From: Candidatus Shapirobacteria bacterium
GTDB lineage: Bacteria > Patescibacteriota > Microgenomatia > UBA12405
Assembly (NCBI GenBank): GCA_041665485.1
Contig: JBAYIT010000001.1
Coordinates: 140,270 to 204,269, forward strand
Length of the DNA stretch: 64,000 bases
Direction: 5' to 3'
Position 1 is the first letter of the stretch, and each line of letters opens with the position of its first letter. Positions 1 through 64,000 of this stretch are shown piece by piece. The position numbers and the translations under genes are program-made. Under the pieces are notes generated by a model that worked only from the letters and a program-made list of their open reading frames with translations, had not been told where the DNA came from and searched no databases.

Positions 1-127
1 TGGAAAGAAGCTACATCTATTTGATTATCAACCAAAAAATCGGTAATTTTTTCTGGGGATCTAAGAAGAGAAGAGTTGAGTTGGAGATGTTTGAGGTTCA
101 TGGTTCTTTGGTAAGTTTATCAGAGTG

Positions 128-1039
128 TCAAAAAAGCGAGGATTGGTTGGGGTTTTTGACTAACTTGATGGGCTTTTGGGAGTGGGTTTTGTGAAGGCGG
201 GAGAGGAGGGATTTGAAATTGTAGTCTTTAAAAATGGCTTCAAGGCCGGTAATTTTGTCTTCATTCCAACGGGCGGATTTAAGGCGGAATTTAATGGGAA
301 TATTGGAAATTAAAGTGGCCAGTTTTTGGGAAAGATAGGCATCTTCCCGACTGGTTTCGAGTTTTGATTTAATGGTAGGGCTAATATCGGCGAGGTGGAA
401 ATAAATAGTGTCTAAATTTTGATATTTGGTTAAGAGGTCAGTGGCGGTTTTGGGGCCGATGCCGGCAACACCGGGATAATTATCAGACATATCCCCCATC
501 AGAGCTTTAAGATCGATAACTTGGGTGGGGAGAACGCCAAGTTTTTCTTTAACCTCGTTGATGCCATAAATTTTAGTTTCGGAAAGGCCGCGAATAGGGA
601 CAAAAAGGTTAACCCGGCGGTCGACCAACTGCATAAGATCCTTGTCGCCGGTAATAATAGTTATTTTTCTGACAAAGCGCTTTTTTTTGTAAACAATGGT
701 AGCGATTAAATCGTCGGCCTCGAAACCACCAACAGCGTAAAAAGGGATTTGGGAAGTTTCCAGAGTTTGAGGAAGAACGGGAAGCTGACTAATAAGATCA
801 TGATCGGGAACTTGGCGTTTGGCGCGGTAGCCAACAAATTCAGACGAGCGAAAAGTTGGGCCGGGAGAATCGACACAAACAACGAGGTGACTGGGTTTTA
901 GGGTGTCGATGGCCGATAAAAGCATGGAATAAAAGCCATAAATAGCGTTGACTGGCTCGCCGTTGTGAGTTAGGGGTGGAATGGAGTGGTAGGCGCGATG
1001 AAGAATGGCATGGGCATCGATGATGACGAGATGAGACAT
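128..1039 (-). CDS. 5'-3' exonuclease (FEN / Pol I N-terminal-domain family)
   Basis: 303-aa ORF with 5'-3' exonuclease family motifs (GFEADDLIAT, ITGDKDLMQLV, H3TH-like GIGPKTA). Confidence 0.8.
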   Translation of the reverse strand: MSHLVIIDAHAILHRAYHSIPPLTHNGEPVNAIYGFYSMLLSAIDTLKPSHLVVCVDSPGPTFRSSEFVGYRAKRQVPDHDLISQLPVLPQTLETSQIPFYAVGGFEADDLIATIVYKKKRFVRKITIITGDKDLMQLVDRRVNLFVPIRGLSETKIYGINEVKEKLGVLPTQVIDLKALMGDMSDNYPGVAGIGPKTATDLLTKYQNLDTIYFHLADISPTIKSKLETSREDAYLSQKLATLISNIPIKFRLKSARWNEDKITGLEAIFKDYNFKSLLSRLHKTHSQKPIKLVKNPNQSSLF

Positions 1040-1045
1040 AAGTAA

Positions 1046-1306
1046 TTAACGATAGAGCTGGCTGTGAGTGCCAATTAACTGAAAAATAATAAGGTCTTCG
1101 TTGATGGAATATAAAGCCCGACAGTCTCCTGAAACATTAATACTGTAAAGGTGGGACAATTTACCCTTAAGACGATGTAAGTTTAAAATAGGATTGTTTC
1201 TATCGTCAATAAATTGGCCGAGTCGTTTATCAAAAGCTGTTTGAAGATTTCTTGGCAGTTTACGGTATAGTTTTTTAAAATTTTTCGTAAATTTAATCTT
1301 GGTCAC
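1046..1306 (-). CDS. type II toxin, RelE/ParE (YafQ-like) family
   Basis: 86 aa; RelE/ParE-like core LHRLKGKLSHLYSINVSGDCRALY; overlaps the upstream antitoxin-like ORF by 14 nt, as in TA operons. Confidence 0.7.
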   Translation of the reverse strand: MTKIKFTKNFKKLYRKLPRNLQTAFDKRLGQFIDDRNNPILNLHRLKGKLSHLYSINVSGDCRALYSINEDLIIFQLIGTHSQLYR

Positions 1307-1583
1307 TCTTCAACCATTTTAGCGCATCTTTCGACTTAGTGAAGGCGGGAGAGGTTTGCCCGGCTTCCAAATCAGAAACGGACTTTGCCAGATTATTGGA
1401 AAACCATTGGGAAGGCTTGGTTTCATCTGGTTCAAGAGAGAGATGGAGCGACTTGTTGCGGATGAATTGTTTTAACAAAACATTGATTAACGAGCTTAGA
1501 CTAAGCCCAAGTTCTTCGGCTAGATAGGCAGCCTGCCGTTTAATATTTAAATCAGTTTTGATGTTGATGACAGAGGTGTTCAT
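1293..1583 (-). CDS. DinJ/RelB-family antitoxin (start trimmed to the internal ATG at 1583)
   Basis: N-terminus MNTSVINIKTDLNIKRQAAYLAEELGLSLSSLINVLL resembles DinJ/RelB antitoxins; the track ORF 1293..1691 starts on TTG and its first 36 codons look non-genic; forms an operon with the RelE-like toxin. Confidence 0.5.
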   Translation of the reverse strand: MNTSVINIKTDLNIKRQAAYLAEELGLSLSSLINVLLKQFIRNKSLHLSLEPDETKPSQWFSNNLAKSVSDLEAGQTSPAFTKSKDALKWLKSDQD

Positions 1584-1682
1584 TAGGAAGTAGTATATAC
1601 GATGTATGGATATTGTAAATAGTGAAATTACCGTTAATTTGGAGTGTGTGGTAGGTTGGATAATAAATGATAAAATGGGCAT

Positions 1683-2441
1683 ATGAAACAACCAATTACT
1701 GATAGTTATCAGCGAATATTTGCCGATAAAAAAAGGGTGTTAGTGGTTTTTGCCCATCCTGATGACCTTGAACTCTACTGTGGTGGTACGGTTGCCCGCC
1801 TAATCTCGGATGGAAAAATAGTACGATCTGTCAAAATGACCAGTGGCGAGATGGGTTCGCGCCAGGAAAAGATTACTCAAGAGGAATTGCTATCCATTAG
1901 AGAAAAAGAGGACTCGGCCTCAATGACCGAATTGGGAATTGCCAGGGAAGATAATGTTTATCTTCGTCGCGGGGATGGCAAAATCGAAAATAATCTTGAA
2001 ATTATTGGCGATGTGGCTAAGCAAATTCGATTATTTCAACCTGATTTAATTATTACCCATAATCCACAGGACTTAGTTATTCGTTTTGATAAAGACATAA
2101 ACTGGTTTAATCACAGGGATCACCGCAATACCGGCCAGATCGTTATTGATGCTTCTTACCCATACGCGCGCGATATTCTCTTTTATCCAGACCACTTTCA
2201 AGATCCGGTGGCAAAATCTTGGACGTGTACTGAGTTTCTTTTGGTTGACTCATACGGCCATGAGGATAGTGTTTTCGTTGATATCACCAAATTTATTAGC
2301 AAAAGAGTAGCAGCTCACGCAAGACACAAATCTCAATACTCAACAAAAGACGCCAAAGATTCGGCTGATTTTTTTACCAAAAGTTGGGACTCACAAGGAA
2401 AAAACAAATATGAAACATTCCGCCATGTTATCGTCGACTGA
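1683..2441 (+). CDS. PIG-L/LmbE-family N-acetylglucosaminyl deacetylase
   Basis: VVFAHPDDLELYCGGT signature near the N-terminus plus downstream His/Asp metal-ligand region. Confidence 0.8.
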   Translation: MKQPITDSYQRIFADKKRVLVVFAHPDDLELYCGGTVARLISDGKIVRSVKMTSGEMGSRQEKITQEELLSIREKEDSASMTELGIAREDNVYLRRGDGKIENNLEIIGDVAKQIRLFQPDLIITHNPQDLVIRFDKDINWFNHRDHRNTGQIVIDASYPYARDILFYPDHFQDPVAKSWTCTEFLLVDSYGHEDSVFVDITKFISKRVAAHARHKSQYSTKDAKDSADFFTKSWDSQGKNKYETFRHVIVD

Positions 2442-3585: not shown

Positions 3586-4506
3586 ATGGAACAGCATTCG
3601 ATCCCGCAACAGATAAGCTCGTATGAGTTTAAGCTGGTGGGGGAAATGACTTTGAAACAGTTTTTGAAGGCGGCAGTGGGGATAGTACTGGCCCTAATGA
3701 TTAATGCCACTGGACTGGTGTTTTTTATAAAATACCCCTTAGTTTTGGCGCTTGGAGGCGGAGGTTTGGCTTTGGCGTTTGTGCCTTTTGAAGACAGACC
3801 GCTGGAAACTTGGATTTTGTCTTTTTTGAAGTCAATTTATACTCCGACGATTTTGATTTACAAAAAAAGGGCTGATAAAAACTGGCTTAATATTGACTAC
3901 ACTAGGGCCAAGTTTATTGAGGAAGAAAAAGAAGAGGAGGAAAAAGCGATTCCGATGAAGAATAAAAGCAAAGTGGCAGAATTTATCGATTCGTTGCCAT
4001 CGGTAAAAAGAGCGGATGAGGAGGGTGAGAATCTAGAATCTGGAATCAAGAATCTAGATTTGAAAACCAAAAACCAAGAAATGGGAGAACAGAAATTAGT
4101 AACTAGTAACAAGATACAAGAAGGAGCCGAGCAAAAGACAACTGACTGGAGGGGGGCAGCGGCAAATTTGGGATTGAAATCGGAAAAATTAGAAGCAACG
4201 GCAAAAGCAACTTTTGGATCGATACCAATGCCAGATATTCCCGACCTACCAAACCTGTTGGTTGGAATGGTGACTAGCAAAGAAGGAAAAATAGTTGACG
4301 GAGCAATCGTTGAAATTTTGGACAACTTGGGCAACCCAGTAAGAGTATTAAAGACTAACCCCTTGGGACAATTTAGAACCTCGACACAATTAAGTGACGG
4401 AAAATATCTGGTAGTGACTGAAAAAGAAGGGTTTGGCTTTGATAGAGTAGAAATAAACCTATCAGGAGGGATAGTTGAGCCGATTAAAATCCAGGCATTG
4501 GCCTAA
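3586..4506 (+). CDS. PrgI/VirB3-like T4SS membrane protein with long C-terminal extension
   Basis: N-terminus SYEFKLVGEMTLKQFLKAAVGIVLALMI followed by two TM helices matches PrgI-family proteins that precede VirB4 in Gram-positive-type T4SS; the C-terminal ~190 aa contain an in-frame GAATCTAGAATCTGGAAT repeat and a beta-sandwich-like tail. Confidence 0.5.
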   Translation: MEQHSIPQQISSYEFKLVGEMTLKQFLKAAVGIVLALMINATGLVFFIKYPLVLALGGGGLALAFVPFEDRPLETWILSFLKSIYTPTILIYKKRADKNWLNIDYTRAKFIEEEKEEEEKAIPMKNKSKVAEFIDSLPSVKRADEEGENLESGIKNLDLKTKNQEMGEQKLVTSNKIQEGAEQKTTDWRGAAANLGLKSEKLEATAKATFGSIPMPDIPDLPNLLVGMVTSKEGKIVDGAIVEILDNLGNPVRVLKTNPLGQFRTSTQLSDGKYLVVTEKEGFGFDRVEINLSGGIVEPIKIQALA

Positions 4507-4538: not shown

Positions 4539-5252
4539 ATGGCAACTGACCCGTTAAAAGTCGCAATTAGAGGAACAACACAAGACCACCTACCAATGGA
4601 GGATGTGATTGATGATGTGGTGTTAATGAAAAACGGCGAATGTGCAGCGATAATGCAAGTTTCGTCGGTAAACTTCGACCTTTTGTCGGAAAGAGAGCAA
4701 CAAGCAATGGTCTATGCCTATGGAGGGATTTTAAATTCCCTTAATTTTCCAATCCAAATTGTAATTTATTCAAATACCAAGGATGTTGGTTTTTATCTTT
4801 CGAACCTTAAGATAGCAGAAGAAAAACAGACTAACGGATTATTAAAAACGAGGATTCAGTCGTACCGCAAATTTATCGAGGAAACGGTTAGGAAAAATGA
4901 TGTTTTGTCAAAGTCGTTTTACGTGATAGTCCCCTTCTCAATTTTAGAGTTAGGAATTAAAAGTGCCCAAAGCTCAATTACCGGAAGCTTTAAACTACCA
5001 TTTGGTAATCACAACAAACAAACAGAGTTGCCATTTGAAAAAAACTATATTATAGAAAAGGCTAAAGCTAGTTTAAAACCAAAAAAAGACCATATTATTA
5101 GGTTGTTTGCAAGGTTGGGGTTAGAGATTAAAGCTTTAAATACCAAAGAAATAATTGAATTACTTTATAAAATTTACAATGAAGACACGGCGGCTAATCA
5201 AAAATTACAAACATTAAATTACGATGCGCCAGTGGTTACCGCTAAAATTTAG
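4539..5252 (+). CDS. VirB4 N-terminal-domain-like protein (possibly a split VirB4 segment)
   Basis: EDVIDDVVLMKNGECAAIMQVSSVNFDLLSEREQQAMVYAYGGILNSLNFPIQIVIYS matches the conserved N-terminal segment of VirB4/TrbE/CagE ATPases (DG..L.KDGSL.A..E..G.D..S..EE......N.AL). Confidence 0.5.
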   Translation: MATDPLKVAIRGTTQDHLPMEDVIDDVVLMKNGECAAIMQVSSVNFDLLSEREQQAMVYAYGGILNSLNFPIQIVIYSNTKDVGFYLSNLKIAEEKQTNGLLKTRIQSYRKFIEETVRKNDVLSKSFYVIVPFSILELGIKSAQSSITGSFKLPFGNHNKQTELPFEKNYIIEKAKASLKPKKDHIIRLFARLGLEIKALNTKEIIELLYKIYNEDTAANQKLQTLNYDAPVVTAKI

Positions 5253-5293
5253 ATCCTAGATGATAGATCTTAGATCTTAGATAAAAACAAAAA

Positions 5294-7924
5294 ATGGGAC
5301 TTAATATATTTGCAAAAAAGAAAGCAGACACAACAGCCGTGGCATCGGTTGCGCCACCTGTCGAGAAAACTAAACCTACCGGGGAAAAAGCGTTTGTGGA
5401 GGGATTAGTGTCGACCAAAGACATTATTGCTCCGGGAGCACTGGAGGTTGATTTTAATGAAATTAGAATAAATAACAAGTACTATCGGACCTGTTTTATT
5501 GCCGGATACCCCCGGTTTGTGGGAATGAACTGGCTCTCTCCATTAATCAATTTTGACGCATCGCTTTCGGTGTCGATGTACATCTACCCAACCGACGGCA
5601 AACAAATTTTGGACGATCTTAGGAGAAAAATTGCAGAAATGGAGGCGGAGATAAGTACTGATATTCAAAGAGGAAGGGTGGTTAATCCAACAACACAGGC
5701 AAAGTTGGAAGATGCACTTAATTTACAGGCAGATTTGGCCAAAGGAGAGGAGAGATTTTTTCAATTTGGGTTATATGTGACAATGGCAGCGGAAACAAAA
5801 GACGACTTAAATCGGATTACAAAAAACCTTGAGGCAGCGTTGGGGGCCTTAATGATTAGTAGTAAGAAATCAACCTTGCAGATGGAGGAAGGGTTTATAA
5901 CAACATTGCCTCTGGGAGCCGATAAATTGCAAATAACGAGAAACATGGACACGACGTCGTTGGCGACAACTTTCCCGTTTGTTAGCTCTGATCTTTCCGA
6001 CGATAAGGGGATAATGTATGGAATTAACGAACACAACGGCAGTTTGGTGATTTTTGACCGGTTTTCAATGCCAAACTACAACTCAGTCGTTTTTGCCACT
6101 GCCGGAGCGGGAAAATCATATTTAATTAAATTGGAAGTAATGAGGTCGTTAATGCTGGGAACAGAGATCATCGTTATTGACCCAGAAAACGAATATAAGG
6201 ACTTGTGCGAATCGGTTGGTGGGCAGTATGTGGCTTTTGGTTATAGTGAACCCTCAAAAATAAATCCTTTTGATTTGTCCTTGGTAACAGATGAAGGGGA
6301 AAACGCCCTTAATTCAAAGATTTTGGATTTGCACAAGTTGCTTAAGATAATGATTGGAGAGATGGACCCGATTGAGGAGTCGATTCTAGATAGGGCGGTA
6401 ATGGACGCCTATAAAATGAAGGGAATTACACCGGATCCAGAGACACAAAATAAAGAACCACCTCTAATTGAGGATTTGTATAAATCATTGATTGGAATGG
6501 AGGAGGAAAAAGCGAGAGGTTTGTCGGCCAGAATTGAAAAATATATTAAAGGGTCGTTTGCCGGTATTTTTAATCAAAAAACAACGGTTAGTTTAAACAA
6601 CAAGTTTGTGGTTTTTGGGATTAGAAATTTGGAAGATGCTCTGCGGCCGGTGGCAATGCAAATAATTCTTGACTATATTTGGACGACAGTAAAGAAAAAT
6701 TTAAAAAAGAGAATATTGGTGGTTGATGAGGCGTGGTACTTGATGCAATATGATGATTCAGCGGCGTTTTTGAGAGGAATTGTGAAGAGAGGGAGAAAAT
6801 ATTACTTGGGGGTAACAACAATAACCCAAGATGTGGACGACTTTTTACAAACGCCATATGGCAAAGAAATTGTGACCAATAGCTCGATTCAAATATTGCT
6901 AAAACAGCATAGCGCGGCAATAGATATGATTGGTGATGTTTTTTACCTGTCTGAAGGGGAAAAACAGCTATTAATGTCAGCGGCGAAGGGCGAGGGGATA
7001 TTTTTTGCCGGGCAAAATCATGTAGCGATTAGAGTGATTGCCTCGGAAGAAGAGCATCTTCTGATTACATCAAACCCAGAGGAAGTAATGAAGATTAAGA
7101 ATCAACGAATCAAAGAATCTGCGAATTTAGATTTAAGCAATACAAATATTACAAAACCAGAACCTGCTGAACCGGCTCCCGTGATACAACCTAATGATCC
7201 CGTGGTGCCAGTCGATCCAACTCCTACATCGATCCCAACCCCAGTGGTTGAGCCGTCTATCAGCCCGGTTCCAGTAGTTCCGGCTCCTGTAGCTCAAACC
7301 CCCGTAGTACCAGTAGTAAGTGAACCAAGTAAACCCAGATTTGTAACGGAGGTAGTGGGTGTACCTCAAGAAACTAGCCATGAGGAATTGCTATCAAAAA
7401 AGATTAATGAAATGGAGGAACTGGAAAAGGCCGAATTGGCAAAATTCGAGGAACAGAAAAAGATAGATGACGAGAAAAAGAAGAAAGAGGAAGAAGAAAA
7501 GGCAAAAATGGGTGGATTTGGAGGAAGTAGTTTTGGGGGGTTACCCAAATACGGCGATTTATTTAAATCAGCCGGAAAGTTACCACCACTACCTCCCCTA
7601 CCACCTTTACCTAAATATCAAGCACCAACAGTAAATAACCAAACAATTTCTCCGTCTGAGACGGATTCCGCTTCGCTTCACAATAACCAAATTCCAAGTT
7701 CCAAACAGGAAGATAAAAAAACTAAACCAATATTCGTGGATATGACGGAGAAACAAATACCCCAACCACTGCAATTGCAGAAAAAAGCAAAACCCATTTT
7801 TGAAGAATCTACGAATCTAGAATCTGGAATTAAGAAAGACAACAAAAATGAGGAAATAGGAACAAAAAAAGACGACAAAGTAAACAAATCCTATGATGAG
7901 TTGTTTGGAAACGGGATTGTTTAG
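5294..7924 (+). CDS. virB4: VirB4/TrbE/PrgJ-family type IV secretion ATPase with Pro-rich and Lys/Glu-rich C-terminal tail
   Basis: Walker A VFATAGAGKSYL, Walker B ILVVDEAWYL and the VirB4 N-domain segment YYRTCFIAGYPRFVGMNWLSPLI; about 180 aa of tail contain a PxP-rich stretch, PPLPPLPPLP and a repeat-encoded ESTNLESGIKK. Confidence 0.85.
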   Translation: MGLNIFAKKKADTTAVASVAPPVEKTKPTGEKAFVEGLVSTKDIIAPGALEVDFNEIRINNKYYRTCFIAGYPRFVGMNWLSPLINFDASLSVSMYIYPTDGKQILDDLRRKIAEMEAEISTDIQRGRVVNPTTQAKLEDALNLQADLAKGEERFFQFGLYVTMAAETKDDLNRITKNLEAALGALMISSKKSTLQMEEGFITTLPLGADKLQITRNMDTTSLATTFPFVSSDLSDDKGIMYGINEHNGSLVIFDRFSMPNYNSVVFATAGAGKSYLIKLEVMRSLMLGTEIIVIDPENEYKDLCESVGGQYVAFGYSEPSKINPFDLSLVTDEGENALNSKILDLHKLLKIMIGEMDPIEESILDRAVMDAYKMKGITPDPETQNKEPPLIEDLYKSLIGMEEEKARGLSARIEKYIKGSFAGIFNQKTTVSLNNKFVVFGIRNLEDALRPVAMQIILDYIWTTVKKNLKKRILVVDEAWYLMQYDDSAAFLRGIVKRGRKYYLGVTTITQDVDDFLQTPYGKEIVTNSSIQILLKQHSAAIDMIGDVFYLSEGEKQLLMSAAKGEGIFFAGQNHVAIRVIASEEEHLLITSNPEEVMKIKNQRIKESANLDLSNTNITKPEPAEPAPVIQPNDPVVPVDPTPTSIPTPVVEPSISPVPVVPAPVAQTPVVPVVSEPSKPRFVTEVVGVPQETSHEELLSKKINEMEELEKAELAKFEEQKKIDDEKKKKEEEEKAKMGGFGGSSFGGLPKYGDLFKSAGKLPPLPPLPPLPKYQAPTVNNQTISPSETDSASLHNNQIPSSKQEDKKTKPIFVDMTEKQIPQPLQLQKKAKPIFEESTNLESGIKKDNKNEEIGTKKDDKVNKSYDELFGNGIV

Positions 7925-10859: not shown

Positions 10860-11831
10860 ATGAAAATAAAAATAATTGGCTTAATTTTGGTAATAATGGC
10901 AATAGTGGGGTTAACGGTGCTAAGTTTGGTTAACAAAAACAAAACCGACCAAGACCAAACGATAAAAATGGGGAAGATTCCAGAGATTGCTGATAAACCA
11001 GTTTACAGAAAGGAGTATTTGGAAAACTATGAAAGGGTGAGCAATATTTGGTGGGAAACGGAAAGGGTAGAACTGCCAACTGAGGCCCAGGCAATAAAAT
11101 TAAAACCAGGGTTTGTGGACATAGCTAATTTAAGACAATGGGCAGAGAAGATGGGACTAGAGTATGTGGAGGGCAAGTGGACCGACGGCAATAAAAAACA
11201 ACTAAGCTATAACCCGCAAACAAAAAAGTTGGAGTATGCAGAAAATATTGAGAGCAAAAAACAACTAACGGGAAACAACCTACCAATAGAAACAATTAAA
11301 GATAATTTAATAAAACTTTTGGCGGAAATTGAAGGACCAAAAAATTTGCCGGTGGTAATTACCGAAACAATTCCCAGAAAACTGGTTTATCCAAGGTGGG
11401 TGACAACAACAGAAAAAGAGGCTGAAGTGTTTGAAATCAGAGCCAATTATAAAATTAACGGAGTGGAAGTGGCTATTGACGGCTGGGAATCGATAAAAAG
11501 TGTCTGGACTCGAGGTGGAAAACTAATAAAACTAGTGACGGTTTGGCCGTTAGAGACGGGGGAGAAACAAGATATAAAAACTAAAAATCTAGCTGAAATA
11601 CAGAGCGCTTTAAATGGGGGTGGAATAAGAATATGGCAAGTTAGAGGAGGAGAGAAAACCGATTTAAGCTACAATACAGAGACAATAAATAGGGCGGTAA
11701 ATGAAATAAGCCTGATGTATGTTTATGATGAAAAAAATAGTTGGCTAATGCCTTATTACAAATTAGTGGGAAATGCAATTGCTAACAATGAGCCGGTTAG
11801 AATTGAATTTGTTGCGGAAGCAGGAAATTAG
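10860..11831 (+). CDS. membrane-anchored hypothetical protein (T4SS-locus associated)
   Basis: N-terminal TM helix IIGLILVIMAIVGLTVLSLV; the start codon overlaps the upstream stop; no recognisable domain. Confidence 0.5.
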   Translation: MKIKIIGLILVIMAIVGLTVLSLVNKNKTDQDQTIKMGKIPEIADKPVYRKEYLENYERVSNIWWETERVELPTEAQAIKLKPGFVDIANLRQWAEKMGLEYVEGKWTDGNKKQLSYNPQTKKLEYAENIESKKQLTGNNLPIETIKDNLIKLLAEIEGPKNLPVVITETIPRKLVYPRWVTTTEKEAEVFEIRANYKINGVEVAIDGWESIKSVWTRGGKLIKLVTVWPLETGEKQDIKTKNLAEIQSALNGGGIRIWQVRGGEKTDLSYNTETINRAVNEISLMYVYDEKNSWLMPYYKLVGNAIANNEPVRIEFVAEAGN

Positions 11832-11852
11832 ATGTTAGATCCTAGATTTTAG

Positions 11853-12254
11853 ATGATAGATATTAAAAATAAATACCAAAAATATCAGATTTTGATTTGG
11901 TTAGGAGCGATAGTGGTGGCGATGTCGGTGATAAAAATTACCTATAAACCGGATAAAAACGAGATTATTAATCAACAAATTAGTCAACCGGGGGTGACTA
12001 TTGCTTTGACACCAACGGTGGAGCCGGAACCACCAATAACCGAACCGGAAACAAATTATGATGAAGATTTTCCCTTGTGGCAGTTACTCCCCTACTCGGG
12101 AGCCGGGTTTACGGTTGACCGCTATTTATCGCCAAAAACGCTTGGGGTAAAAATTAAGGGAATTGATAAAAAAATAGTGGAGGAAAGAATTAAAACGTGG
12201 CTTCTACAAAATAAGATTGAGGAAGGAAGTCATAAAATTGAATACCTCAATTAA
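11853..12254 (+). CDS. membrane-anchored hypothetical protein
   Basis: 133 aa with an N-terminal TM helix ILIWLGAIVVAMSVI. Confidence 0.45.
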   Translation: MIDIKNKYQKYQILIWLGAIVVAMSVIKITYKPDKNEIINQQISQPGVTIALTPTVEPEPPITEPETNYDEDFPLWQLLPYSGAGFTVDRYLSPKTLGVKIKGIDKKIVEERIKTWLLQNKIEEGSHKIEYLN

Positions 12255-12308
12255 ATTTTTAATTTGAAATTTTTAATTTTTAATCAATTTTTAATTATTA
12301 AATTTTAA

Positions 12309-12572: not shown

Positions 12573-12595
12573 AAACCAGAAATAAGAGATAAGAA

Positions 12596-23333: not shown

Positions 23334-23356
23334 TTACGAAATTTTTAATTTGAAAT

Positions 23357-43637: not shown

Positions 43638-43676
43638 GAATTTACGAATATACGAATCTACGAATTAAGATAAAAA

Positions 43677-45041: not shown

Positions 45042-45140
45042 AAACCCTTCCCCTAACCCCTTCACCTCCGCCTGTCGTCGGACAGGTTGACAGGGCAGGG
45101 GAAAAAATAATTTTTAATTTTAAATTTTTAATTTTAAAAA

Positions 45141-46677: not shown

Positions 46678-46731
46678 ATCTTAGATTTTGGTTCTTAGTT
46701 CTTAGATACTGGGTACTGGATGCAAAATGTG

Positions 46732-54703: not shown

Positions 54704-54828
54704 CAAGCAATTTTGCTCAAGCAAAATTGAAATTTTCAATTTCCAATAACCAATTTACAAAATAAAAATGAGAAAAATTGATTTTATAAAAACATTGGGG
54801 ATAGTAATGGCGGTGGTGTTGGTGGTAT

Positions 54829-56100
54829 TTGGGGGAATTGAAAATTTGTGGAGAACGATTAAAAGCATTAAGTATTAAATTAAGAATCAAGAACTTAGAG
54901 CTAAGAACTAAGATTTTTTTCTTTGTAATTTTGATCCTAGTGGTGATGGGAGGGGCGGGGTGGTGGTTTATGAGAGGAGAGGATGGGGGAATTTTGTCAC
55001 CTTTGGGAATGAAGAAACAAGAGAATGGCCTTAAAATAGTTGGTTTTTTGCCGACTTGGATGGTGGGCAAAACAAAAATCTATGGGGAAGAACTGGACAG
55101 GTTGGTATTTTTGGGAGTAGAAGTAAATGAAAAGGGAGATTTGGTTTGGGATGTTCAGGGAAAAAAGATAAATAATCCTGACTACCTTAAAATAAAGGAG
55201 GAGATTAAAAAGACAGGGGGCGAAAATATTTTGGGAGTGAAGTTGTTTAAAGACGAAAAACTGAAAAAGTTGATGGCTAGCAGTGAGGCGAGGGGGAGGC
55301 TAGTGGAGCAAGTAATGGCAGCAGTAGAGGCAGGTAATTTTGACGGGGTTAACCTTGATTTTGAGTATCAATATGACCCGCTGGCGGTGACGGAGGAAGT
55401 TTTTTTGGGATTAATTGCCGAAATGAGGGGGGCGGGGATTGAAAACATAAGCCTGGACGTGTTTGCTAACACAATTATTAAGAGCGGATATGAAAGACTC
55501 TTCAAGCTGGTGGGGGCGGTTGATGAGGTATTGGTGATGGCTTATGATTTTCACGCCAGTGGAAGTAGTAGCGCCGGGCCGGTGGCGCCATTGGGGGCAC
55601 CAACGGGTGAGAGAAGTATTTTGGAAGTGTTGGAGAAAATTGAAAGTAGCGGGGTGGATAAAAACAAAATAACGATTGCTTTGCCTTTATATGGCTACCA
55701 ATGGAAGACGGAAACGACCGAACTCGGATCACCGGCAACAGATTATGTGGCAATGTTGACTTATGCAAAAATGGGGGAATTTTTGCAGAGTGACGAGTTT
55801 TTAGGTAGAGTTAATCAAAATTGGGACGAATTGAGCGCCACGCCATGGATATGGCTCAAAAAGCAGGAGACAGTGAGCTGGAAAGAGAGGGTTAAAGTGG
55901 GAAAAGTGTGGAAAACGGTGGCAAAATCGAAACAGGTTGAGGTGATACATCAGGTTTATTACGAAGACCAGAGGAGCCTAATGGAAAAAATTAAGGCAAT
56001 TCGAGAGGCAGGAATAAATAGTATTGGCTTTTGGGCACTAGGGTATGAGGGAGAGACGAATTTGCTTGGTACAATAAGAAATGATCAAAACGATAATTGA
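54829..56100 (+). CDS. glycoside hydrolase family 18 (chitinase-like) protein with N-terminal membrane anchor
   Basis: GH18 catalytic motif FDGVNLDFEY (DxxDxDxE). Confidence 0.7.
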   Translation: MGELKICGERLKALSIKLRIKNLELRTKIFFFVILILVVMGGAGWWFMRGEDGGILSPLGMKKQENGLKIVGFLPTWMVGKTKIYGEELDRLVFLGVEVNEKGDLVWDVQGKKINNPDYLKIKEEIKKTGGENILGVKLFKDEKLKKLMASSEARGRLVEQVMAAVEAGNFDGVNLDFEYQYDPLAVTEEVFLGLIAEMRGAGIENISLDVFANTIIKSGYERLFKLVGAVDEVLVMAYDFHASGSSSAGPVAPLGAPTGERSILEVLEKIESSGVDKNKITIALPLYGYQWKTETTELGSPATDYVAMLTYAKMGEFLQSDEFLGRVNQNWDELSATPWIWLKKQETVSWKERVKVGKVWKTVAKSKQVEVIHQVYYEDQRSLMEKIKAIREAGINSIGFWALGYEGETNLLGTIRNDQNDN

Positions 56101-56752
56101 TTTCTTTTTGCATATTGATAAAAATTTGGCTTGGATAATTGGAGCCTTTGGGGGGTGGAGCTATGCCATATTATTTTTGGTTATTTTTGTGGAGACAGGG
56201 TTGGTGATAATGCCGTTTTTACCGGGTGATTCTTTGCTTTTTGCGGCGGGAGCCTTAACGGCTTCTTTGGGGGTATTTAATATATTTTTGTTGTGGGGAT
56301 TAATGATAATGGCGGCATTTGTTGGGGACACAGTCAATTATTGGATAGGACATACTATTGGGTCGAAAGCTTTTGACCCAAATTACAGGTTAAAAGTTTT
56401 CAGTTACGAGTTACGAGTTTCGAAAATACTGAAACCAGAATATTTAATCAAAGCGCAGGGATTTTATGATAAACATGGGGGGAAGGCGATAATACTGGCC
56501 CGTTTTGTGCCGATTGTGCGAACTTTTGCCCCATTTGTGGCCGGGGTGAGCAAAATGAGCTACCCTAAGTTTTTATCGTTTAATTTGGTGGGAGGAGCCC
56601 TGTGGGTGTCGGCGTTTGTGTGGGGAGGGTACTTGTTTGGAAATATACCATTGGTTAAGGATAATTTTCACTATTCAGTGGTTTTGATTGTGTTAATTTC
56701 GGTAGTGCCGATTGGGGTGGAGTGGGTGAAAAGTAGGAGGGCAAGAATTTAA
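56081..56752 (+). CDS. DedA-family (VTT domain) membrane protein
   Basis: LVIFVETGLVIMPFLPGDSLLFAAGAL signature; in-frame AGTTACGA repeat at 56395-56420. Confidence 0.8.
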   Translation: MIKTIIDFFLHIDKNLAWIIGAFGGWSYAILFLVIFVETGLVIMPFLPGDSLLFAAGALTASLGVFNIFLLWGLMIMAAFVGDTVNYWIGHTIGSKAFDPNYRLKVFSYELRVSKILKPEYLIKAQGFYDKHGGKAIILARFVPIVRTFAPFVAGVSKMSYPKFLSFNLVGGALWVSAFVWGGYLFGNIPLVKDNFHYSVVLIVLISVVPIGVEWVKSRRARI

Positions 56753-56816
56753 GAATCTGCGAATCTAGAATTTAGAAATAAGACTAAAGATTGGTGTAAA
56801 ATAGAGAAAATAAAAT

Positions 56817-58527: not shown

Positions 58528-58699
58528 TAAATTGTTGATAAATTTTAATAAAGCAAATGGTGGATGCCTAGGTAGTCGAGACCGATGAAGGACGCAGAAG
58601 GCGGCGAAACAGATTGGGGAGTTGCCAACAAACGGTGATCCAATCAAATCCGAATGGAGAAATCCCGGCCCGAGCAATCGGGCTGAGCCACTGTTTCAC

Positions 58700-58835
58700 G
58701 GAGATAACAAATTACAAATCTACAAGTTCCAAGCAAATCACAAATTCAAAATTACAAGTTCCAGATGTTATATTTGAAATTTGTTTTTTGGAAATTGTTT
58801 GGAAATTGTTTTTTGTGAATTTGGAATTTCTGTGA
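58700..58835 (+). other. ORF-less intervening sequence / expansion in the 23S 5' domain (helix 9-10 region), built from AATTTCCAAACAAAT-type word repeats
   Basis: About 130 nt inserted between ...CACGGAGATAAC and GTGAAGCGGTGGC... where E. coli has a short helix; the two halves are roughly self-complementary. Confidence 0.5.
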
Positions 58836-59161
58836 AGCGGTGGCGGGTAAGCCGGGGAAGTGAAACATCTCAGTACCCGGAGGAAAAGAAATCGTATTCC
58901 GTCGTAAGACGGACATAGGAGATTCCGTTAGTAGCGGTGAGCGAAAACGGAAAAGCCCAAACCTGTCGCAAGACAGGGGTTGTAGGGTTTGGTATAAGGC
59001 ATTGAAAATCCAGAAAAACGTCCTGGAATGGGCGGCCAAAGAGGGTGAGAGCCCCGTATTTAAATGATAAGTAAATGCTGACCAAATACCTGAGTACTAC
59101 GGGACACGCGAAATGCCGTAGGAACCTGGGGAGACCAATCTCCAAGGCTAAATATCTCGAC

Positions 59162-59201: not shown

Positions 59202-59921
59202 ATACTGCAGATCGCAGGGTGAAATATATCTGAAACCATTTGCTAACAAACAGACAAAGCTCCGTAAGGGGTGATGTCGTGCCTATTGAAGAATGAGCCC
59301 GCGAGTGTTCTCAATTACCAAGTTTAATCCCCGATGGGGTGGAGGCGTAGCGAAAGCAAGTCTGAATAAGGCGATTAGGTAATTGGGGATGACCCGAAGC
59401 CACTTGAGCTAACCCTGGGCAGGGTGAACTTCGATGAAAATCGAAGGGAGGCCCGTACGGATCAGAGCTGCAAATCTGTCCGATGACTTGGGGTTAGGGG
59501 TAATATGCCAATCGAAAGTGGGAATAGCTGGCTCTCTCCGAAATATATATAGGTATAGCGCTTGGTGTTCAACGACGGGGGTAGAGCTACTGGATGAATG
59601 TTTTCAGCGCAAGCTGAGGCATTTAACCAAACTCCGAATACCGTTGTTCTAAGCCAGGCAGTCAGTCCGACCGGGCTAAGCTGGCCGGGCAAAAGGGGAA
59701 GACCCCAGACTCTCATCTAAGGTCTCTAAATCTATGCTAAGTGGGAAAGGTAGTGATTTTCCTCAGACAGGCAGGAGGTTGGCTCAGAAGCAGCCATCCT
59801 TTAAAGAAAGCGTAACAGCTCACTGTTCGATTTGTCCCGACGCAAGTTGGGACGGAGGAAGATTGCGCCGAAAATGTAACGAGGCTAAAGCATAGTACCG
59901 AAGGTGGAGAACTCGTCCTTT

Positions 59922-60062
59922 GGACGAGAAATTTCAATAATCAATAACCAATTTCCAAACAATAACCAATAACCAATTTCCAAATTTACAAACTTTTGTT
60001 TGTTATTTGAAATTTGTTATTTGTTTGGAACTTGTAGGTTTGTAATTTGGAATTTCCCGTCC
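59922..60062 (+). other. ORF-less intervening sequence at the helix-45 position of 23S, a known IVS site
   Basis: GGACGAGAAATTT...AATTTCCCGTCC form a terminal stem around about 115 nt of A/T-rich word repeats, inserted before the conserved CAGAGGATGGGTTGGTAGG. Confidence 0.55.
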
Positions 60063-61417
60063 AGAGGATGGGTTGGTAGGAGAGCGTTGTGGAGGCGGTG
60101 AAGGTTGGCTGTAAGGCTGGCTGGAGCGTCCACAAGTGAGAATGCGGGCATGAGTAGCGTAACTCTGGTGAGAATCCAGAGCGCCGAATATCCAAGGTTT
60201 CCTCAGCTACGTTGTTCGACTGAGGGTTAGGCGATCCTAACACGAACCTCGTATAATGCGGGGGTAGTGGACGGATAACCGGTTAATATTCCGGTCCTTT
60301 CTTGAATTCGTTTTAAGTTGGGGCATGACGACAAATGAAAGACTAGGTCTTGCAGTGAAATTGCAGGATTTAAGTATTAAGTTAGAAGGGGATTGGGAAA
60401 TCCGCCTCTTCGTTATAAAATGAAATACGAGTAGAAGTCTGGCGAAAGCCGGGCAATCTGGTTACGTTTATTTGTCCAAGAAAATTGTCGCAAATAGAAT
60501 TCAGGAAATTCGTACCAAAACCGACACTGGTGGATAGGTCGAGTAGACCAAGGCGATTGGAAGACAGATGGTTAAGGAACTTGGCAAATCAACTGGGCGT
60601 AAGTTTTACAAGATGCCCTGCCCCGATTAGTATCGGGGCTACAACAAAAGAATGCACGGCGACTGTTTACCACAAACACAGGTCCATGCAAACCCGTAAG
60701 GGGAAGTATATGGGCTGAAACCTGACCGGTGCCAGAAGGTTAAGAAGGCGGGTGATATCGCAAGATTGAGCCTGTTTTATAAGCCCTGGTGAACGTCAGC
60801 AGTAACTCTAACTGTTCTAAGGTAGCAAAGTCCTTTGTCGGGTAAGTTCCGACGCGTATGAAAGGTTTAACGACTGTGCAACTGTCTTAACTGTCTATCC
60901 AGCGAAATTGAAAGAGCGGTGAAGATGCCGTTTAGTTACTACAGGACAAAAAGACCCCATGAAGCTTTACTGGATCTTTACATTGATGAGAACTTAATGA
61001 TTGTCGAGCGTAGGAGGGAGCCTTCGGGCGTCAATGGAACACCTCCCTTTGTTAATTTCAAGTCTCACCTACTCCAATGGATGTTGGAGGGGAACCGTGT
61101 ATGGTTGCTAGTTTGCCTGGGGCAGGCACCTGCAAAAAAATAACGCGGGTACACAAAGGTCACCTTGGTCCGGCTAGAAATCGGACTATAAGTGCAAAAG
61201 CAAAAGGTGGCTTGACTGCGAGACATACTTGTCGAGGTCCCCGATTTATCGGGGGCATTTCAACCCAGTTTACTGTGTTGGAATCAGGGTCGAAAGACGG
61301 TTTTAGTGATCCTCGTGACCCACTGGTATGGGCACGGGCTTACTGGATAAAAGCTACTCTGGGGATAACAGGCTAGTCGCGTCCGATAGTTCATATTGAC
61401 GACGCGGTTCGGCACCT

Positions 61418-62362: not shown

Positions 62363-62430
62363 GAGAAACCATGCGGGGAAGATTCAACAGATTGCATTTA
62401 TTCATTTATTTAGGGTAAACAATCCCGTTT

Positions 62431-62460
62431 ATCCCGAAGTAAATTTCGGGATTTTTATTT
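62431..62460 (+). terminator. Rho-independent terminator of the rRNA operon
   Basis: Hairpin ATCCCGAAGTAAATTTCGGGAT followed by TTTTTATTT. Confidence 0.6.
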
Positions 62461-62464
62461 AAAT

Positions 62465-63568
62465 ATGGCAAAAGTAAAAAAGGTAAGCAAAAAAAAGAAT
62501 GAGGCAATGACGATGGAGGAGTTGCTTTCGAATGAGAAAGTGGATTTGGTAGGACTTAAGAAAGGTCAGGAGTCTAAGGGAAGAATAACATCAATTAGGA
62601 GTAAGGCGATTTATATTGACGTTGGTGGAAAAACCGATGCGGTGGTGGCGGGAAAAGAATTTGAATTTGTTAAGGATTATGTTTCTGATTTAAAAACCGG
62701 AGACGAAATTGATGTTTTGATAAAACAGCCGGAAAACGATAAGGGCCAAATTTTAGTGTCGATTCGGGGAGCGGCTTCGGGTTATGGTTGGAACTATTTT
62801 AGCGAAAAAGAAAAATCGGGTGGAGAAGTGACAGTTTTTGCTAAGGAGCTAAACAGGGGTGGAGCGGTGGTGGTGGCTCCTTTTGGTTTCTTTGGATTTA
62901 TTCCAGGGAGTCAAATAGGTTCTAAATATGATGGAGACCCGGATAAGATGATTGGCAAAAAAGTGAAAGCCAAGGTGTTGGAGGTTGACCAAGCGAAAAA
63001 TAGATTGGTGTTTTCGGAGAGATTAGTGTCTGAGCCGGGAAAAGTGGGTGATGAAGCAAATGCAATTGAAGCCTTGGCTTTGGGTGATGAGTTCGAAGCA
63101 GATGTGGTTAGAGTTGAACCCTTTGGTGTTTTTGTAAGAATAGAGAAAGGAGAAATGAGACTTGAGGGACTGGTTCATATAAGTGAAATTTCTTGGGAGA
63201 AAGTTGAAAATGTTTCGAATATGTATAAACCAAAAGATAAAGTAGCAGTGAAGCTGATTAATAAAGATGATGGGAGGTTGCAATTTTCGATTAAGAGATT
63301 GCAATCTGATCCGTGGGAGAAGATTGAAGAAAGATATTCTAAAGACAAAGAAATTGATGGAGTGGTAACAAAAATTGCCAACTATGGAGCATTAGTTCGT
63401 CTGGAAAGCGGAATTGAGGGATTAGTGCATATTTCCAAATTGACATCGGGGATAAACTTTAAGGAAGGCGATAAACTTGAGGTTTACGTCGAATCTGTTG
63501 ATGTGGCCAAAAGAAAAATCTCTTTAGGACTAGTGGAGACAGATAAAAGTAGAGTAATTTACAAATAA
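62465..63568 (+). CDS. rpsA: 30S ribosomal protein S1-like (multiple S1 domains)
   Basis: 367 aa with four repeated S1-domain-like segments (G..V.G.V..I...G.FV). Confidence 0.7.
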   Translation: MAKVKKVSKKKNEAMTMEELLSNEKVDLVGLKKGQESKGRITSIRSKAIYIDVGGKTDAVVAGKEFEFVKDYVSDLKTGDEIDVLIKQPENDKGQILVSIRGAASGYGWNYFSEKEKSGGEVTVFAKELNRGGAVVVAPFGFFGFIPGSQIGSKYDGDPDKMIGKKVKAKVLEVDQAKNRLVFSERLVSEPGKVGDEANAIEALALGDEFEADVVRVEPFGVFVRIEKGEMRLEGLVHISEISWEKVENVSNMYKPKDKVAVKLINKDDGRLQFSIKRLQSDPWEKIEERYSKDKEIDGVVTKIANYGALVRLESGIEGLVHISKLTSGINFKEGDKLEVYVESVDVAKRKISLGLVETDKSRVIYK

Positions 63569-63579
63569 AACCGTTAACC

Positions 63580-64000
63580 GTGATTAGTAAACAGTTAACA
63601 GAAAAACTAGAACGGATTGGGGTTAGAGTGCCAAGGATTTTATTGCCCAAGGAAGGGGTGGATATGAGTAAGTGGGCGGTGGTGGCCTGCGATCAATTTA
63701 CTTCGGAGCCGGAGTATTGGGCGGGAGTAGAAAGGCTGGTGGCCGAGGTGTCGTCGACTTATAAAATAACATTGCCGGAGGTGTACCTCGAAAGCCCAGA
63801 TAAACAGGAGAGAATTAAGGAAATAAATGAGGAAATGAAAAAATATTTGGATGAGGAGGTATTAGAGGAAAAGTTTGAAGGATTCGTGTTGGTAGAAAGA
63901 ACGTTGAAAAGTGGTAAGGAGAGGCGGGGATTAATGGTGGCGTTGGATTTGGAGAAATATGATTATCACAAGGGCAGTAAAACTTTGATTCGGGCAACAG
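63580..64000 (+). CDS. DUF1015-family protein (5' partial, runs off the window end; GTG start assumed)
   Basis: WAVVACDQFTSEPEYW and LMVALDLEKYDYHKGS..LIRAT resemble conserved DUF1015 blocks. Confidence 0.45.
   Translation, partial: MISKQLTEKLERIGVRVPRILLPKEGVDMSKWAVVACDQFTSEPEYWAGVERLVAEVSSTYKITLPEVYLESPDKQERIKEINEEMKKYLDEEVLEEKFEGFVLVERTLKSGKERRGLMVALDLEKYDYHKGSKTLIRAT

Follow-up and report, generated by a model that had tools for sequence, protein, structure and literature searches.

Heptameric tandem repeats have been known since 1990, in the form of short tandemly repeated repetitive (STRR) sequences. We analyzed repeats of this kind in a stretch of 64,000 nucleotides from a Candidatus Shapirobacteria genome (contig JBAYIT010000001.1, positions 140,270 to 204,269 of the forward strand), a member of the candidate phyla radiation (CPR); this whole stretch is called the window below. 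An original prediction had described degenerate short tandem words at its gene junctions, in frame in its coding sequences (CDS), and inside its 23S rRNA gene. The arrays are a member of a known, little-studied class of heptanucleotide repeats, found here in a new lineage, where they are dense and invade coding sequence. In addition, a perfect 26-nt inverted pair of arrays brackets a gene for an intervening sequence protein (IVP). This architecture is the new observation, and it recurs across phyla.

STRR elements occur in heterocystous cyanobacteria. Heptamers are the over-represented class of simple sequence repeats (SSRs), for which polymerase slippage was proposed, according to Mrazek (2007) in the form in which it is cited in PMC4679880 and PMC4692102. 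In Xanthomonas, approximately 70 convergent pairs of GGGAATC arrays are able to form stem-loops (Rehm et al. 2015, PMC4692102), and arrays at the same junctions in two species vary in length and sequence (PMC4692102). In marine Beggiatoaceae, cyanobacteria, and Bacteroidetes, TAACTGA repeats are found a short way upstream of start codons, and translational regulation was proposed for them (MacGregor 2015, PMC4679880).

The window arrays shared several properties with the cyanobacterial STRR sequences and heptanucleotide long SSRs, namely 7-nt head-to-tail units in 2-6 or more copies, single-base variants, dispersed and mostly intergenic placement (here an enrichment in intergenic DNA), and lineage-specific words. 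They differed in that the host has a CPR genome of the 1-Mb class, approximately ten A/T-rich or purine-rich words coexist, approximately 70 % of the array bases lie within annotated genes or rRNA, and the arrays are strongly polar to a single strand. The Xanthomonas GGGAATC and Nostoc GGGGAYT arrays (PMC4692102) are likewise heptamers near the ends of open reading frames (ORFs), at junctions common to relatives, and variable, and their GAATC core is present in the window word GGAATCT/CGAATCT. However, those words are G-rich and form G-quadruplexes, occur as one word per genome without strand bias, and are rarely coding.

The comparison with TAACTGA (PMC4679880) gave a mixed result. Common to both were heptamer sets a few nucleotides upstream of starts without a Shine-Dalgarno (SD) sequence, "split" sets of related heptamers, some reverse-orientation sets inside ORFs, and a cross-phylum distribution. 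There, one dominant word is oriented forward to the downstream gene, whereas the window has many words whose orientation is fixed to one DNA strand. In 15 genes of the window, an array ended within 20 nt of the start codon or overlapped it, but the window has approximately ten words, which were antisense to four minus-strand genes. The window word CAGTTAC/GAGTTAC resembles TCAGTTA, the reverse complement of TAACTGA. This is a lead only, with a chance of coincidence of approximately 20 % by our own estimate for approximately 12 word families. Borg tandem repeats (PMC9879509) are also pervasive in spacers and in frame, A-rich, fast-evolving, and enriched in extracellular and membrane proteins, and they code for linker-like peptides. 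In contrast to Borg units, which are perfect, unique to a locus, and divisible by three in ORFs, those of the window are 7 nt long, are degenerate (62-100 % matching within arrays), and are common to several loci.

Heptamer arrays in the window and in related genomes

Repeats were identified with Tandem Repeats Finder (TRF) and with a lag scan of our own, and expected word counts were taken from dinucleotide-preserving shuffles. TRF gave 122 rows that merged into 81 blocks. Approximately 50 of these belonged to A/T-rich word families, in agreement with the more than 45 blocks counted originally. The best period was 7, 14, or 21 in 34 of the 81 blocks, and the remaining word-family blocks lay at 8 or 9. 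The lag scan showed peaks at 7 (11 arrays) and 14 (9 arrays) compared to approximately zero in shuffles; its arrays were almost confined to 7, 14, and 21, with few at 8/16 and 9/18. All the words of the original prediction were found to recur across the window far above the shuffle expectation. For example, GAATCTACGA occurred 10 times versus 0.08 expected, and AGAGATAAGA 21 times versus 0.16. The unit length of 7-16 nt given for them was not retained: the basic unit was 7 nt, with some of 8 and 9, and the words listed as 8-10 nt were heptamers read out of phase or octamers. CCGTCTGAGACGGA(CTTCG)3, listed as a tandem word, was actually a hairpin-plus-pentamer module present in three copies. 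The word families were AGAATCT (octamer form GAATCTAC), TTAGATC, AGAGATA, AGAACTA, AGAAATA, AGAACAC, AGTTACG, AATTTCC, AATAACC, ACAAATT, AATTTTT, AATTTGA, GTAATTA, GGTACTA, and one 9-mer, AAAGTCCAA.

Three other identities were rejected. CRISPR was excluded by the lack of spacers of unique sequence, an artefact of coding periodicity by a period that is not a multiple of 3, and a pure effect of composition by the near absence of arrays in the dinucleotide shuffles.

TRF blocks covered 15 % of the 4950 spacer nucleotides versus 3.0 % of the annotated nucleotides. A block touched 23 of the 40 spacers of at least 15 nt, which is over half rather than almost every spacer, as had been claimed. The words occurred approximately 70 times on the + strand versus approximately 5 times on the - strand, regardless of gene strand. 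This independence of gene strand points to an asymmetry at the DNA level rather than the RNA level.

The arrays were reproduced in other assemblies. The JGI assembly 3300037810 matched window positions 36194-50405, which hold approximately ten arrays, with 1 mismatch and 0 gaps over 14.2 kb. In addition, the VirB4-like protein (5294-7924) was 100 % identical to a protein on the ENA contig ERZ27249449:k141_1025756 (411,674 bp), and a third assembly (NCBI/JGI, 410,903 bp) encoded the same window proteins. In protein cluster look-ups, differences were limited to start codons and one A25S change. Because an independent assembly reproduced 14.2 kb without a gap, the repeats are real, and the assembly artefact that had been left open is refuted.

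Array density differed strongly between related Shapirobacteria. Period-7 arrays per 10 kb numbered 5.3 in the window, 5.6 in L003, 2.7 in L002, 0.4 in L004, and 0.5 in L137. The last of these is the closest syntenic relative (77 % nucleotide identity) and has approximately ten-fold fewer arrays than the window. L002, L003, and L129 carried words such as AATTACG, GATTTAT, AGTTAAC, and AGTAATC, and L137 and L004 were nearly array-free. At the same junctions, related species differed in the presence, length, and word of the array. The junctions TraC/VirB4, hyp323/hyp133, hyp133/hyp87, and hyp87/next overlapped or abutted in L004 and mostly in L002 (for TraC/VirB4, an overlap in L004 and a gap of 3 nt in L002). 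In the window, the same four junctions were spacers of 21-54 nt made wholly of arrays. Since the junctions were compact in relatives and array-filled here, the arrays are derived insertions and not ancestral regulatory DNA. This ortholog comparison, which the original prediction had proposed, thus identified the junction arrays as recent, lineage-specific insertions. As judged from these sequences, array density is a lineage trait. Formerly overlapping genes were pushed apart by arrays in a minimal CPR genome, and the ten-fold difference in density is a natural experiment from which the trigger of these bursts could be learned.

The cross-phylum distribution was examined with one genome per species by a scan for (AGTTACG)2.6, a word found at four window loci. 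At least 120 stretches were obtained, including isolate genomes. Among the matches listed were Chloroflexota, Bacteroidota, Ignavibacteria, Planctomycetota, Acidobacteriota, several CPR groups, and a few gammaproteobacteria. Most of the listed stretches carried several more period-7 arrays of unrelated words, often as an array with an inverted copy. Since many of the listed phyla have such arrays, the phenomenon is general, and in the window it occurs at high density in a CPR genome.

Inverted arrays, the IVP gene, and the 23S rRNA insertions

The bracketed gene (33018..33380, - strand) encodes a 120-aa "23S rRNA intervening sequence protein" of the four-helix-bundle type (PF05635, E = 5e-34; TIGR02436, E = 4e-32), which weakly resembles Avd, a protein of diversity-generating retroelements. 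The left arm (32982-33007) is part of an AGAGATA/AGAACAC array that lies over the FtsH stop (32962..33007, + strand). The right arm (33396..33427, - strand) lies 15 nt upstream of the IVP start, holds the perfect 26-nt inverted repeat (33402-33427), and is the sole minus-strand AGAGATA array in the window. In its layout, this bracketing corresponds to the intervening sequence (IVS) architecture of the Leptospira and Coxiella type, placed in a spacer between protein genes.

The same arrangement was found elsewhere. Among the cross-phylum matches listed (at least 120 stretches), all six IVP homologs were flanked by heptamer arrays, mostly inverted. Overall, such bracketing was observed in Omnitrophota, Roizmanbacteria, Ignavibacteria, Saprospiraceae, cyanobacteria, Riemerella, and Azospirillum. 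The flank complementarity of the window IVP and five of the six listed homologs ranked 1, 4, 16, 26, 106, and 161 of 1766 ORFs; the sixth homolog (L051) was unscored, being too near the contig end. In an independent sample of plasmid IVP genes (n = 12) from Nostocales and other cyanobacteria, Riemerella, and Azospirillum, adjoining heptamer arrays were inverted in 8 and direct or offset in 3 (11/12). Judging by its flanks, the copy from Azospirillum seems to be located within a helix-45 IVS. The flanking words differed between genomes while the ORFs were approximately 70 % identical, which means that the arrays follow the repertoire of the host and not the gene.

It is conceivable, though doubtful in our judgment, that inverted heptamer arrays and the IVP (Avd-like; PF05635/TIGR02436) together constitute a single cassette that is widespread in CPR, cyanobacteria, Bacteroidota, Ignavibacteria, Omnitrophota, and alphaproteobacteria. 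On this reading, the classic 23S IVS would be no more than the rRNA-resident form of the cassette, the IVP would bind or propagate the arrays, and the heptamer excess of bacteria, STRR included, would be the footprint of this system and not a quirk of the polymerase. If general, the bracketing links two old puzzles, the function of S23p/IVP and the origin of heptamer repeats, and makes both testable.

Among the listed loci, the ORFs other than IVP with inverted array flanks were ordinary housekeeping genes, with no transposase or reverse transcriptase among them. In L122, L121, L118, L125, and L110, which come from array-rich genomes of other phyla, housekeeping cistrons (nuoD, nuoK, groEL, KDPG aldolase, a GNAT, and a methyltransferase) lay between an array and a second copy in inverted orientation. 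Inverted arrays around single cistrons might form long-range RNA stems. On the cyanobacterial plasmids L140, L143, and L145, IVP genes were located between cmr2/cmr3 or cas6/cas4 with heptamer arrays on their flanks. Such insertions in cas operons may explain the earlier "CRISPR-associated" label of the family (PMC3936711).

The words also occurred in the 23S rRNA gene. This gene was 3567 nt long, and alignment to E. coli rrlH showed three large insertions: one of approximately 130 nt near E. coli 153-171, a second of 143 nt located at helix 45, and a third of 282 nt after approximately 2500. The first site is presumably the hairpin next to helix 9. Two insertions built from the words had been predicted, and both were confirmed; the total is three, the 282-nt insertion being without repeats. 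Insertion 1 (58690..58842, + strand) had an ACAAATY/ACAAGTTCC array as its 5' arm and the complement as its 3' arm, with a predicted hairpin of dG -55.4 (z -7.2). Insertion 2 (59910..60074, + strand; after E. coli approximately 1171-1174) had a CAATAAC/CAATTTCC array and its complement, with a predicted hairpin of dG -67 (z -8.7). Both were near-perfect folds, and 0/200 shuffles folded as well. In the relative L137, the site near 160 was free of an insertion, whereas helix 45 carried a 314-nt insert of unrelated sequence.

Helix 45 is the classic IVS site (PMC4990558), and short insertions other than introns are frequent at the IVS sites of CPR 23S genes (PMC11270868). The window insertions shared with the 23S IVS of Leptospira and Coxiella (PMC4990558, PMC11270868) the helix-45 tip, the extended stem-loop, and the sporadic presence among relatives. 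In addition, the helix-45 IVS of Coxiella has polymorphic heptameric repeats in its stem, upstream of the S23p ORF (PMC4990558), and the window genome has an IVP-family gene. However, the two rRNA hairpins of the window contain no ORF and are built from genome-wide words, and the IVP gene with its inverted arms lies in a spacer between protein genes and not in rRNA. Here, rRNA helices were extended into IVS-type hairpins from words that occur across the genome.

The third insertion (61418-61699) was repeat-free and structured (z -5.1), was missing from L137, and weakly matched the group I intron model RF00028 (21.6 bits, E = 0.0018, below gathering). It may be weakly group-I-intron-like. The 23S gene was flanked by a 39-nt inverted repeat of 92 % identity (58507-58545 versus 62093-62129). 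This repeat is the ordinary stem for processing of the pre-rRNA and has no relation to the word families.

Longer segments were common to distant loci. An ACAAATT/ACAAGTTCC module in Wzy (24507..24568, + strand) contained an exact aperiodic 31-nt match (24508-24538) to the reverse complement of 23S positions 60019-60049 and a 32-nt match of 94 % to 58707-58738. The two 23S insertions shared 39 nt at 92 % in opposite orientation. An AGTTTTC-AGTTACG-AGTTACG module in the VTT-domain CDS (56389..56423, + strand) matched an intergenic array exactly over 25 nt (56395-56419 versus 42807-42831). Further matches comprised 38 nt at 95 % between two junctions (12253-12290 versus 23339-23376) and a segment of 32 nt with 94 % identity in the dnaA spacer (15944-15975) and the 7TM/ATP-grasp spacer (43636-43667). 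The hairpin with (CTTCG)3 occurred in frame in the VirB4 tail (7645-7693) and in Wzy (23568-23616), and in a spacer (29195-29243), where the stem carried a compensatory change from TCCGTC/GACGGA to TCCGCC/GGCGGA. No match to this module was found in 150 fetched loci. Long aperiodic matches are not explicable by independent slippage, which means that modules were moved or homogenised between loci by some process. Ectopic conversion or template switching would be the simplest candidate.

Origin of the arrays

We consider it probable, at approximately 60 %, that the arrays arose by slippage, were copied between loci and filtered by selection, and are mostly selfish or neutral, the rRNA hairpins and the IVP cassette being their hairpin-forming members. 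Slipped-strand mispairing in a 7-nt register would generate the arrays and change their size, and some of them would be seeded by local sequence such as a TAG-ATG stop/start junction or the 14-nt duplication in the ATP-grasp gene. Ectopic conversion or template switching would then copy multi-unit modules from locus to locus or make them uniform, giving a genome repertoire of approximately ten words. The arrays persisted only in tolerant sites, namely spacers, gene ends, variable linkers or loops, hydrophobic N-termini (signal peptides) of the opposite strand, and the tips of rRNA helices; selection would have purged harmful arrays and left these survivors. At the helix tips, an array with its inverted copy would form an IVS-type hairpin, whose removal by RNase III is presumed. 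The inverted pair brackets the hallmark gene of the IVS, which suggested that arrays and IVS-like cassettes may be one selfish or near-neutral system. The proliferation of arrays would be recent and would belong to a single Candidatus Shapirobacteria lineage.

Several observations weigh against this reading. The strand bias (approximately 70:5), seen even beside minus-strand genes, is not predicted by simple slippage, which would have to be supplemented, for example by replication-strand asymmetry or the purine skew. The arrays were short and degenerate, with longest perfect runs of approximately 4 units, which argues against ongoing slippage at a high rate. No variant in array length or copy number was found in the 3-4 available assemblies, which probably represent one population, and a metagenome scan for RimK1 gave 7 loci (best 83 % amino acid identity) with no strain-level variants among them. 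No enzyme for the spreading of modules was identified, and the window held one IVP gene in 64 kb versus approximately 50 arrays. L003 had arrays of its own at two of the array junctions of the window, so selection for function rather than mere permissiveness is possible. In addition, the start-adjacent arrays of 15 genes resemble the proposed regulatory TAACTGA system.

The last two points lead to functional cis-elements of RNA or DNA, in which the arrays would serve as landing pads replacing the SD, as UP-like promoter elements, as three-frame stop insulators between genes, or, when paired in inverted orientation, as stems for RNase III processing. Their recognition would be by a repeat-binding protein, as was proposed for TAACTGA. 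In the start-adjacent arrays, the intervening bases were A-rich without an SD, and arrays abutted TGGTATAAT motifs at 31011 and 42861. Since 7 and 3 are coprime, a heptamer with a stop codon closes every reading frame once it is repeated three or more times, and several arrays began at the upstream stop: the three intergenic TTAGATS arrays (5249, 11828, 46674) each started at an upstream TAG, and a fourth family member lay inside DUF4012. The inverted arrays around nuoD, nuoK, and groEL in other phyla and the translational regulation proposed for TAACTGA (MacGregor 2015, PMC4679880) agree with such a role. However, relatives use overlapping genes without an array at the same junctions, and the closest of them does with ten-fold fewer arrays. 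The approximately ten different words also occurred in CDS, rRNA, and 3' ends, and they were antisense beside the minus-strand dnaA, TrbL-like, 755-aa, and pilin genes. Moreover, the spacers with a conserved promoter-like motif similar to GGTATAAT (VirB4/M23, PrgI/TraC) were the array-free ones, in all four genomes. A functional role was judged unlikely.

We regard it as quite unlikely that the arrays are the termini, footprints, or targets of mobile IVS-like cassettes with an Avd-like IVP, with the hairpins without ORF and the solo arrays as decayed or partial copies or as sites made or bound by the IVP. The IVP ORF within perfect 26-nt inverted arrays fits this explanation, and so does the bracketing across phyla, which was significantly enriched over other ORFs at the listed loci. 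Plasmid IVP genes were found overwhelmingly in Nostocales, the classic STRR organisms, IVP insertions lie inside cas operons (PMC3936711), and the heptameric repeats of the Coxiella IVS lie beside the S23p ORF (PMC4990558). Modules were common to the 23S hairpins, a CDS, and spacers. On the other side, there was one IVP gene for approximately 50 window arrays, and the flanking words tracked the host genome while the ORFs were approximately 70 % identical. Housekeeping genes were likewise bracketed by inverted arrays, some arrays were clearly seeded by local sequence, and no target-site duplication (TSD) and no recombinase or reverse transcriptase nearby was found. S23p is apparently not expressed in Coxiella (PMC4990558).

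The mini-satellite or miniature inverted-repeat transposable element (MITE) suggested originally was retained in part. The arrays are tolerated in linkers, loops, and gene ends, are lineage-specific, and share modules. A classical MITE was not supported because the copies were not uniform, with varying unit order and length, and because terminal inverted repeats and TSDs were lacking around solo arrays; inverted arms were limited to the IVP cassette, where no TSD was evident.

Phase variation, also raised in the original prediction, was judged very unlikely. Here, surface genes (pilins, 755-aa, TrbL-like, GH18, Wzy/Wzx) would be contingency loci, turned on and off when a 7-nt unit is added to or lost from their promoter or 5' coding region. 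This is structurally possible at the 5' ends of surface-protein genes: the pilin, 755-aa, TrbL-like, and GH18 genes had arrays in their initial 20-160 nt, and Wzy had them along its whole length, a change of one unit shifts the frame because 7 is not a multiple of 3, and envelope and type IV secretion system (T4SS) genes are typical targets. Heptanucleotide phase variation is known in Haemophilus (PMC8262952, PMC2651432). However, the arrays were degenerate and short (at most 4 perfect units) and equally common at housekeeping junctions (dnaA, FtsH, YidC, RimK) and in rRNA. Length polymorphism, for which the original prediction had proposed a comparison of reads or strains, was not seen among the 3-4 assemblies of probably one population, and neither was a frameshifted variant. 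An assembly or synthetic artefact is practically ruled out: misassembly is classically caused by repeats, and this genome was assembled from a metagenome, but the arrays were identical in MEGAHIT-style ENA and JGI assemblies and in NCBI proteins, ORFs were open through them, and the same repeat class occurred in at least 120 stretches, including isolate genomes.

Positions of the arrays and other features of the window

The positions in this and the next two paragraphs refer to the + strand. At the TraC/VirB4 junction, a TTAGATC array (5249..5282) ran from the TAG stop of the TraC-like gene, filled the 41-nt spacer, and ended 11 nt before the VirB4 ATG. A TTAGATG/TTAGATC array (11828..11865) contained both the upstream TAG stop and the ATG of the next gene, which overlap by 4 nt in relatives, and a TTAGATC/TTAGTTC array (46674..46707) began at the TAG stop of the SNase-like gene. 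AATTTTT/AATTTGA arrays filled a 54-nt spacer (12250..12317) and lay at the Jag/Wzy junction (23329..23397), where L003 had an AATTACG array at the same place. Convergent genes were separated by an AGAAATA/AGAGATA/AGAACTA array (12567..12608). Around dnaA, a GTAATYR array (14271..14304) lay in the dnaN-dnaA spacer, a GAATCTA(C) array (15796..15829) lay 6 nt upstream of dnaA and antisense to it, and a GAATCTAC array (15946..15973) lay in the spacer between dnaA and the 296-aa gene. The DUF4012/AAA_14 spacer (29149..29266) contained an AATTTCC/AATAACC array, the hairpin with (CTTCG)3, and a second AATTTCCAAACAAATCACAA copy; 29149-29179 was 94 % identical to an AATTTYC/AATAACC array in the spacer before GH18 (54731..54760). 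Further arrays ended close to start codons: AGAGATAAGAACTA x2.2 (30980..31011), which lay 17 nt ahead of the FtsH ATG and abutted a TGGTATAAT motif; GAATNTAC (43634..43670), which filled its spacer and ended 6 nt before the ATP-grasp ATG; and TAATTTT (45108..45138), which stopped 2 nt short of the RimK1 ATG. Upstream of the TrbL-like gene, the spacer (37932..38033) held a GAGTTAC array with sub-threshold GAATCTA/GAATTTA units, and another spacer held a AAAGTCCAA 9-mer array (40342..40380). In a divergent spacer, a CAGTTNN/AGTTACG array followed by a GGTACTA array (42796..42861) abutted ATGGTATAAT, and an AAGAATYT array (56743..56771) lay over the stop of the VTT gene.

Inside genes, translation confirmed that ORFs remained open through the arrays. 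An AGAATCT array followed by an AAAACCA array (4028..4077) was in frame in the variable linker of the PrgI-like protein (ENLESGIKNLD..KTKNQ), and NLESGIK was present in both this protein and VirB4, as predicted. In 16 VirB4 homologs, the core (1-596) was conserved and the low-complexity tail was hypervariable. The variable C-terminal tail held a AAGAATCA/ACGAATCA array (7097..7119), an in-frame segment in which a hairpin + (CTTCG)n module precedes a CCAAATT array (7645..7705; ISPSETDSASLHNNQIPSSK), and a GAATCT(A/AC) array (7803..7836; EESTNLESGIKK). The VirB4 homologs P0003 and P0092 from other CPR species had 7-aa SGQAPxx repeats (21-nt period) in their variable N-terminal and C-terminal regions (alignment A1, columns approximately 60-90 and 1000-1130), which suggested that in-frame repeat invasion of VirB4 is recurrent. 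In YidC, an AGTTAYC/AGTTACG array (20767..20795) lay in a loop (KLSVTSDQLR) that is 5 aa longer than in orthologs. The O-antigen-ligase-like (Wzy-like) protein was repeat-coded in part, as claimed, with six blocks in its ORF. These included the hairpin + (CTTCG)3 module with an AAATTAWT array in frame (23568..23623), AGTTTAAAGTTTATCA x2.2 (23732..23767), a CTAGGAAT/CTACGAAT array (24014..24045; LGIYESRNLGI), and a TAATTTC array (24144..24174). The array regions of Wzy are probably loops. In coding arrays of stop-containing words, the unit that would place TAA in frame carried a variant: the third unit of the TAATTTC array was CAATTTC, and units 1 and 4 were variant in an AGAACTA array of DUF4012 (26403..26438; ENSELRTKNQEL).

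The C-terminus of Wzx (RDKNTEIRNKR) and its stop were coded by an AGAGATA/AGAACAC array (25858..25902). RDKNTEIR was also found, as predicted, in the DUF4012 linker, within a segment of an AGAGCTA array, a GATCCTA array, and an AGAACAC/AGAGATA module (27160..27312); the same N-terminal linker held a CAGTTAC/GAGTTAC array followed by an AGAAAA-type array (26969..27031). Minus-strand genes read the words as their complement, giving hydrophobic N-terminal segments. AACAAGA and GAATCTAC/GGAATCT arrays (37754..37880) lay within the N-terminus of the TrbL-like gene (FCFLFLV). The reverse complement of an AGAAATA/AGAACTA/(AGAGATA)4 array (40279..40321) coded the N-terminus of the 755-aa protein, and that of an AGAGATA/AGAACTA array (40737..40781) coded the signal or transmembrane segment of the first pilin; the predicted YLLVLIS/SYLLVLIS was found in both. 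The ATP-grasp CDS contained a 14-nt tandem duplication of AAATTTCTAATGAC (43957..43983), and its ortholog in L129 had (AATTACG)4 at this site. The length differed by 15 nt, so the reading frame was kept. A perfect (AAAGTCCAA)3.6 array (46066..46097) coded the C-terminus of RimK1 (ESPKSPKSPKS). The SPKSPKS reported for both RimK paralogs was accordingly present in RimK1, as SPKSPKSPKS, whereas RimK2 had ESPKS twice instead, from AAGTCCAAAAAG units (47543..47581; KSKKPESPKSEES). The N-terminus of GH18 (LRIKNLELRTK) came from a TAAGAAC/TAAGAGC array (54881..54913). Arrays thus created new linker, loop, and signal-peptide segments.

The gene content of the window was typical of CPR and comprised PrgI-like, TraC-like, VirB4, M23 peptidase, dnaN, dnaA, YidC, Jag, Wzy, Wzx, DUF4012, FtsH, and TrbL-like genes, five T4SS pilins, three ATP-grasp/RimK genes, GH18, tRNA-Ile, tRNA-Ala, 23S, 5S, and S1. 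At gathering thresholds, Rfam gave nothing in the window beyond 23S, 5S, and one tRNA; the second tRNA was found with ARAGORN. Long ORFs were intact under table 11. In the ENA gene calls for the source contig, dnaA was missed entirely and several genes were split; for want of this call, no exact match to the window DnaA protein was obtained. For annotation, gene starts and stops are blurred by the arrays.

GC skew was strongly positive throughout the window with no flip at dnaA, and the purine skew was strong. The dnaA gene was flanked by DnaA-box-like motifs, TGTGGATAAG twice and TTTTCCACA twice (14185-14451, 15790-16039). Across this locus, the skew was positive on both sides, and the array words stayed on one strand. 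Either replication may start at another place, or something other than replication may drive the skew. Extended -10-like motifs (TGGGTATAAT, TGGTATAAT) were located 6-25 nt upstream of several start codons (7925-7947, 30629-30654, 20991-21020, 31012-31028, 42862-42893), and the VirB4/M23 copy was conserved in four genomes, with the orthologous spacers of L002-L004 compared. Their closeness to the starts suggested that many mRNAs may be leaderless or have a very short leader.

The tRNA-Ile gene (54296-54370) was followed by an ORF for a 91-aa GIY-YIG endonuclease (54375-54650). The pair was flanked by tRNA-like 45-nt copies of 98 % identity (54238-54282, 54646-54690), and the 3' 33 nt of tRNA-Ile were duplicated exactly at 54673-54705. 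This locus looks like a homing-endonuclease insertion beside or into a tRNA gene. The neighboring 494-aa and 816-aa cohesin-like genes shared 61-nt repeats of 89 % (48970-49030 versus 50486-50546) and repeats of 40-58 nt (50176-50387 versus 52664-52872), which are paralogous coding segments and not word arrays.

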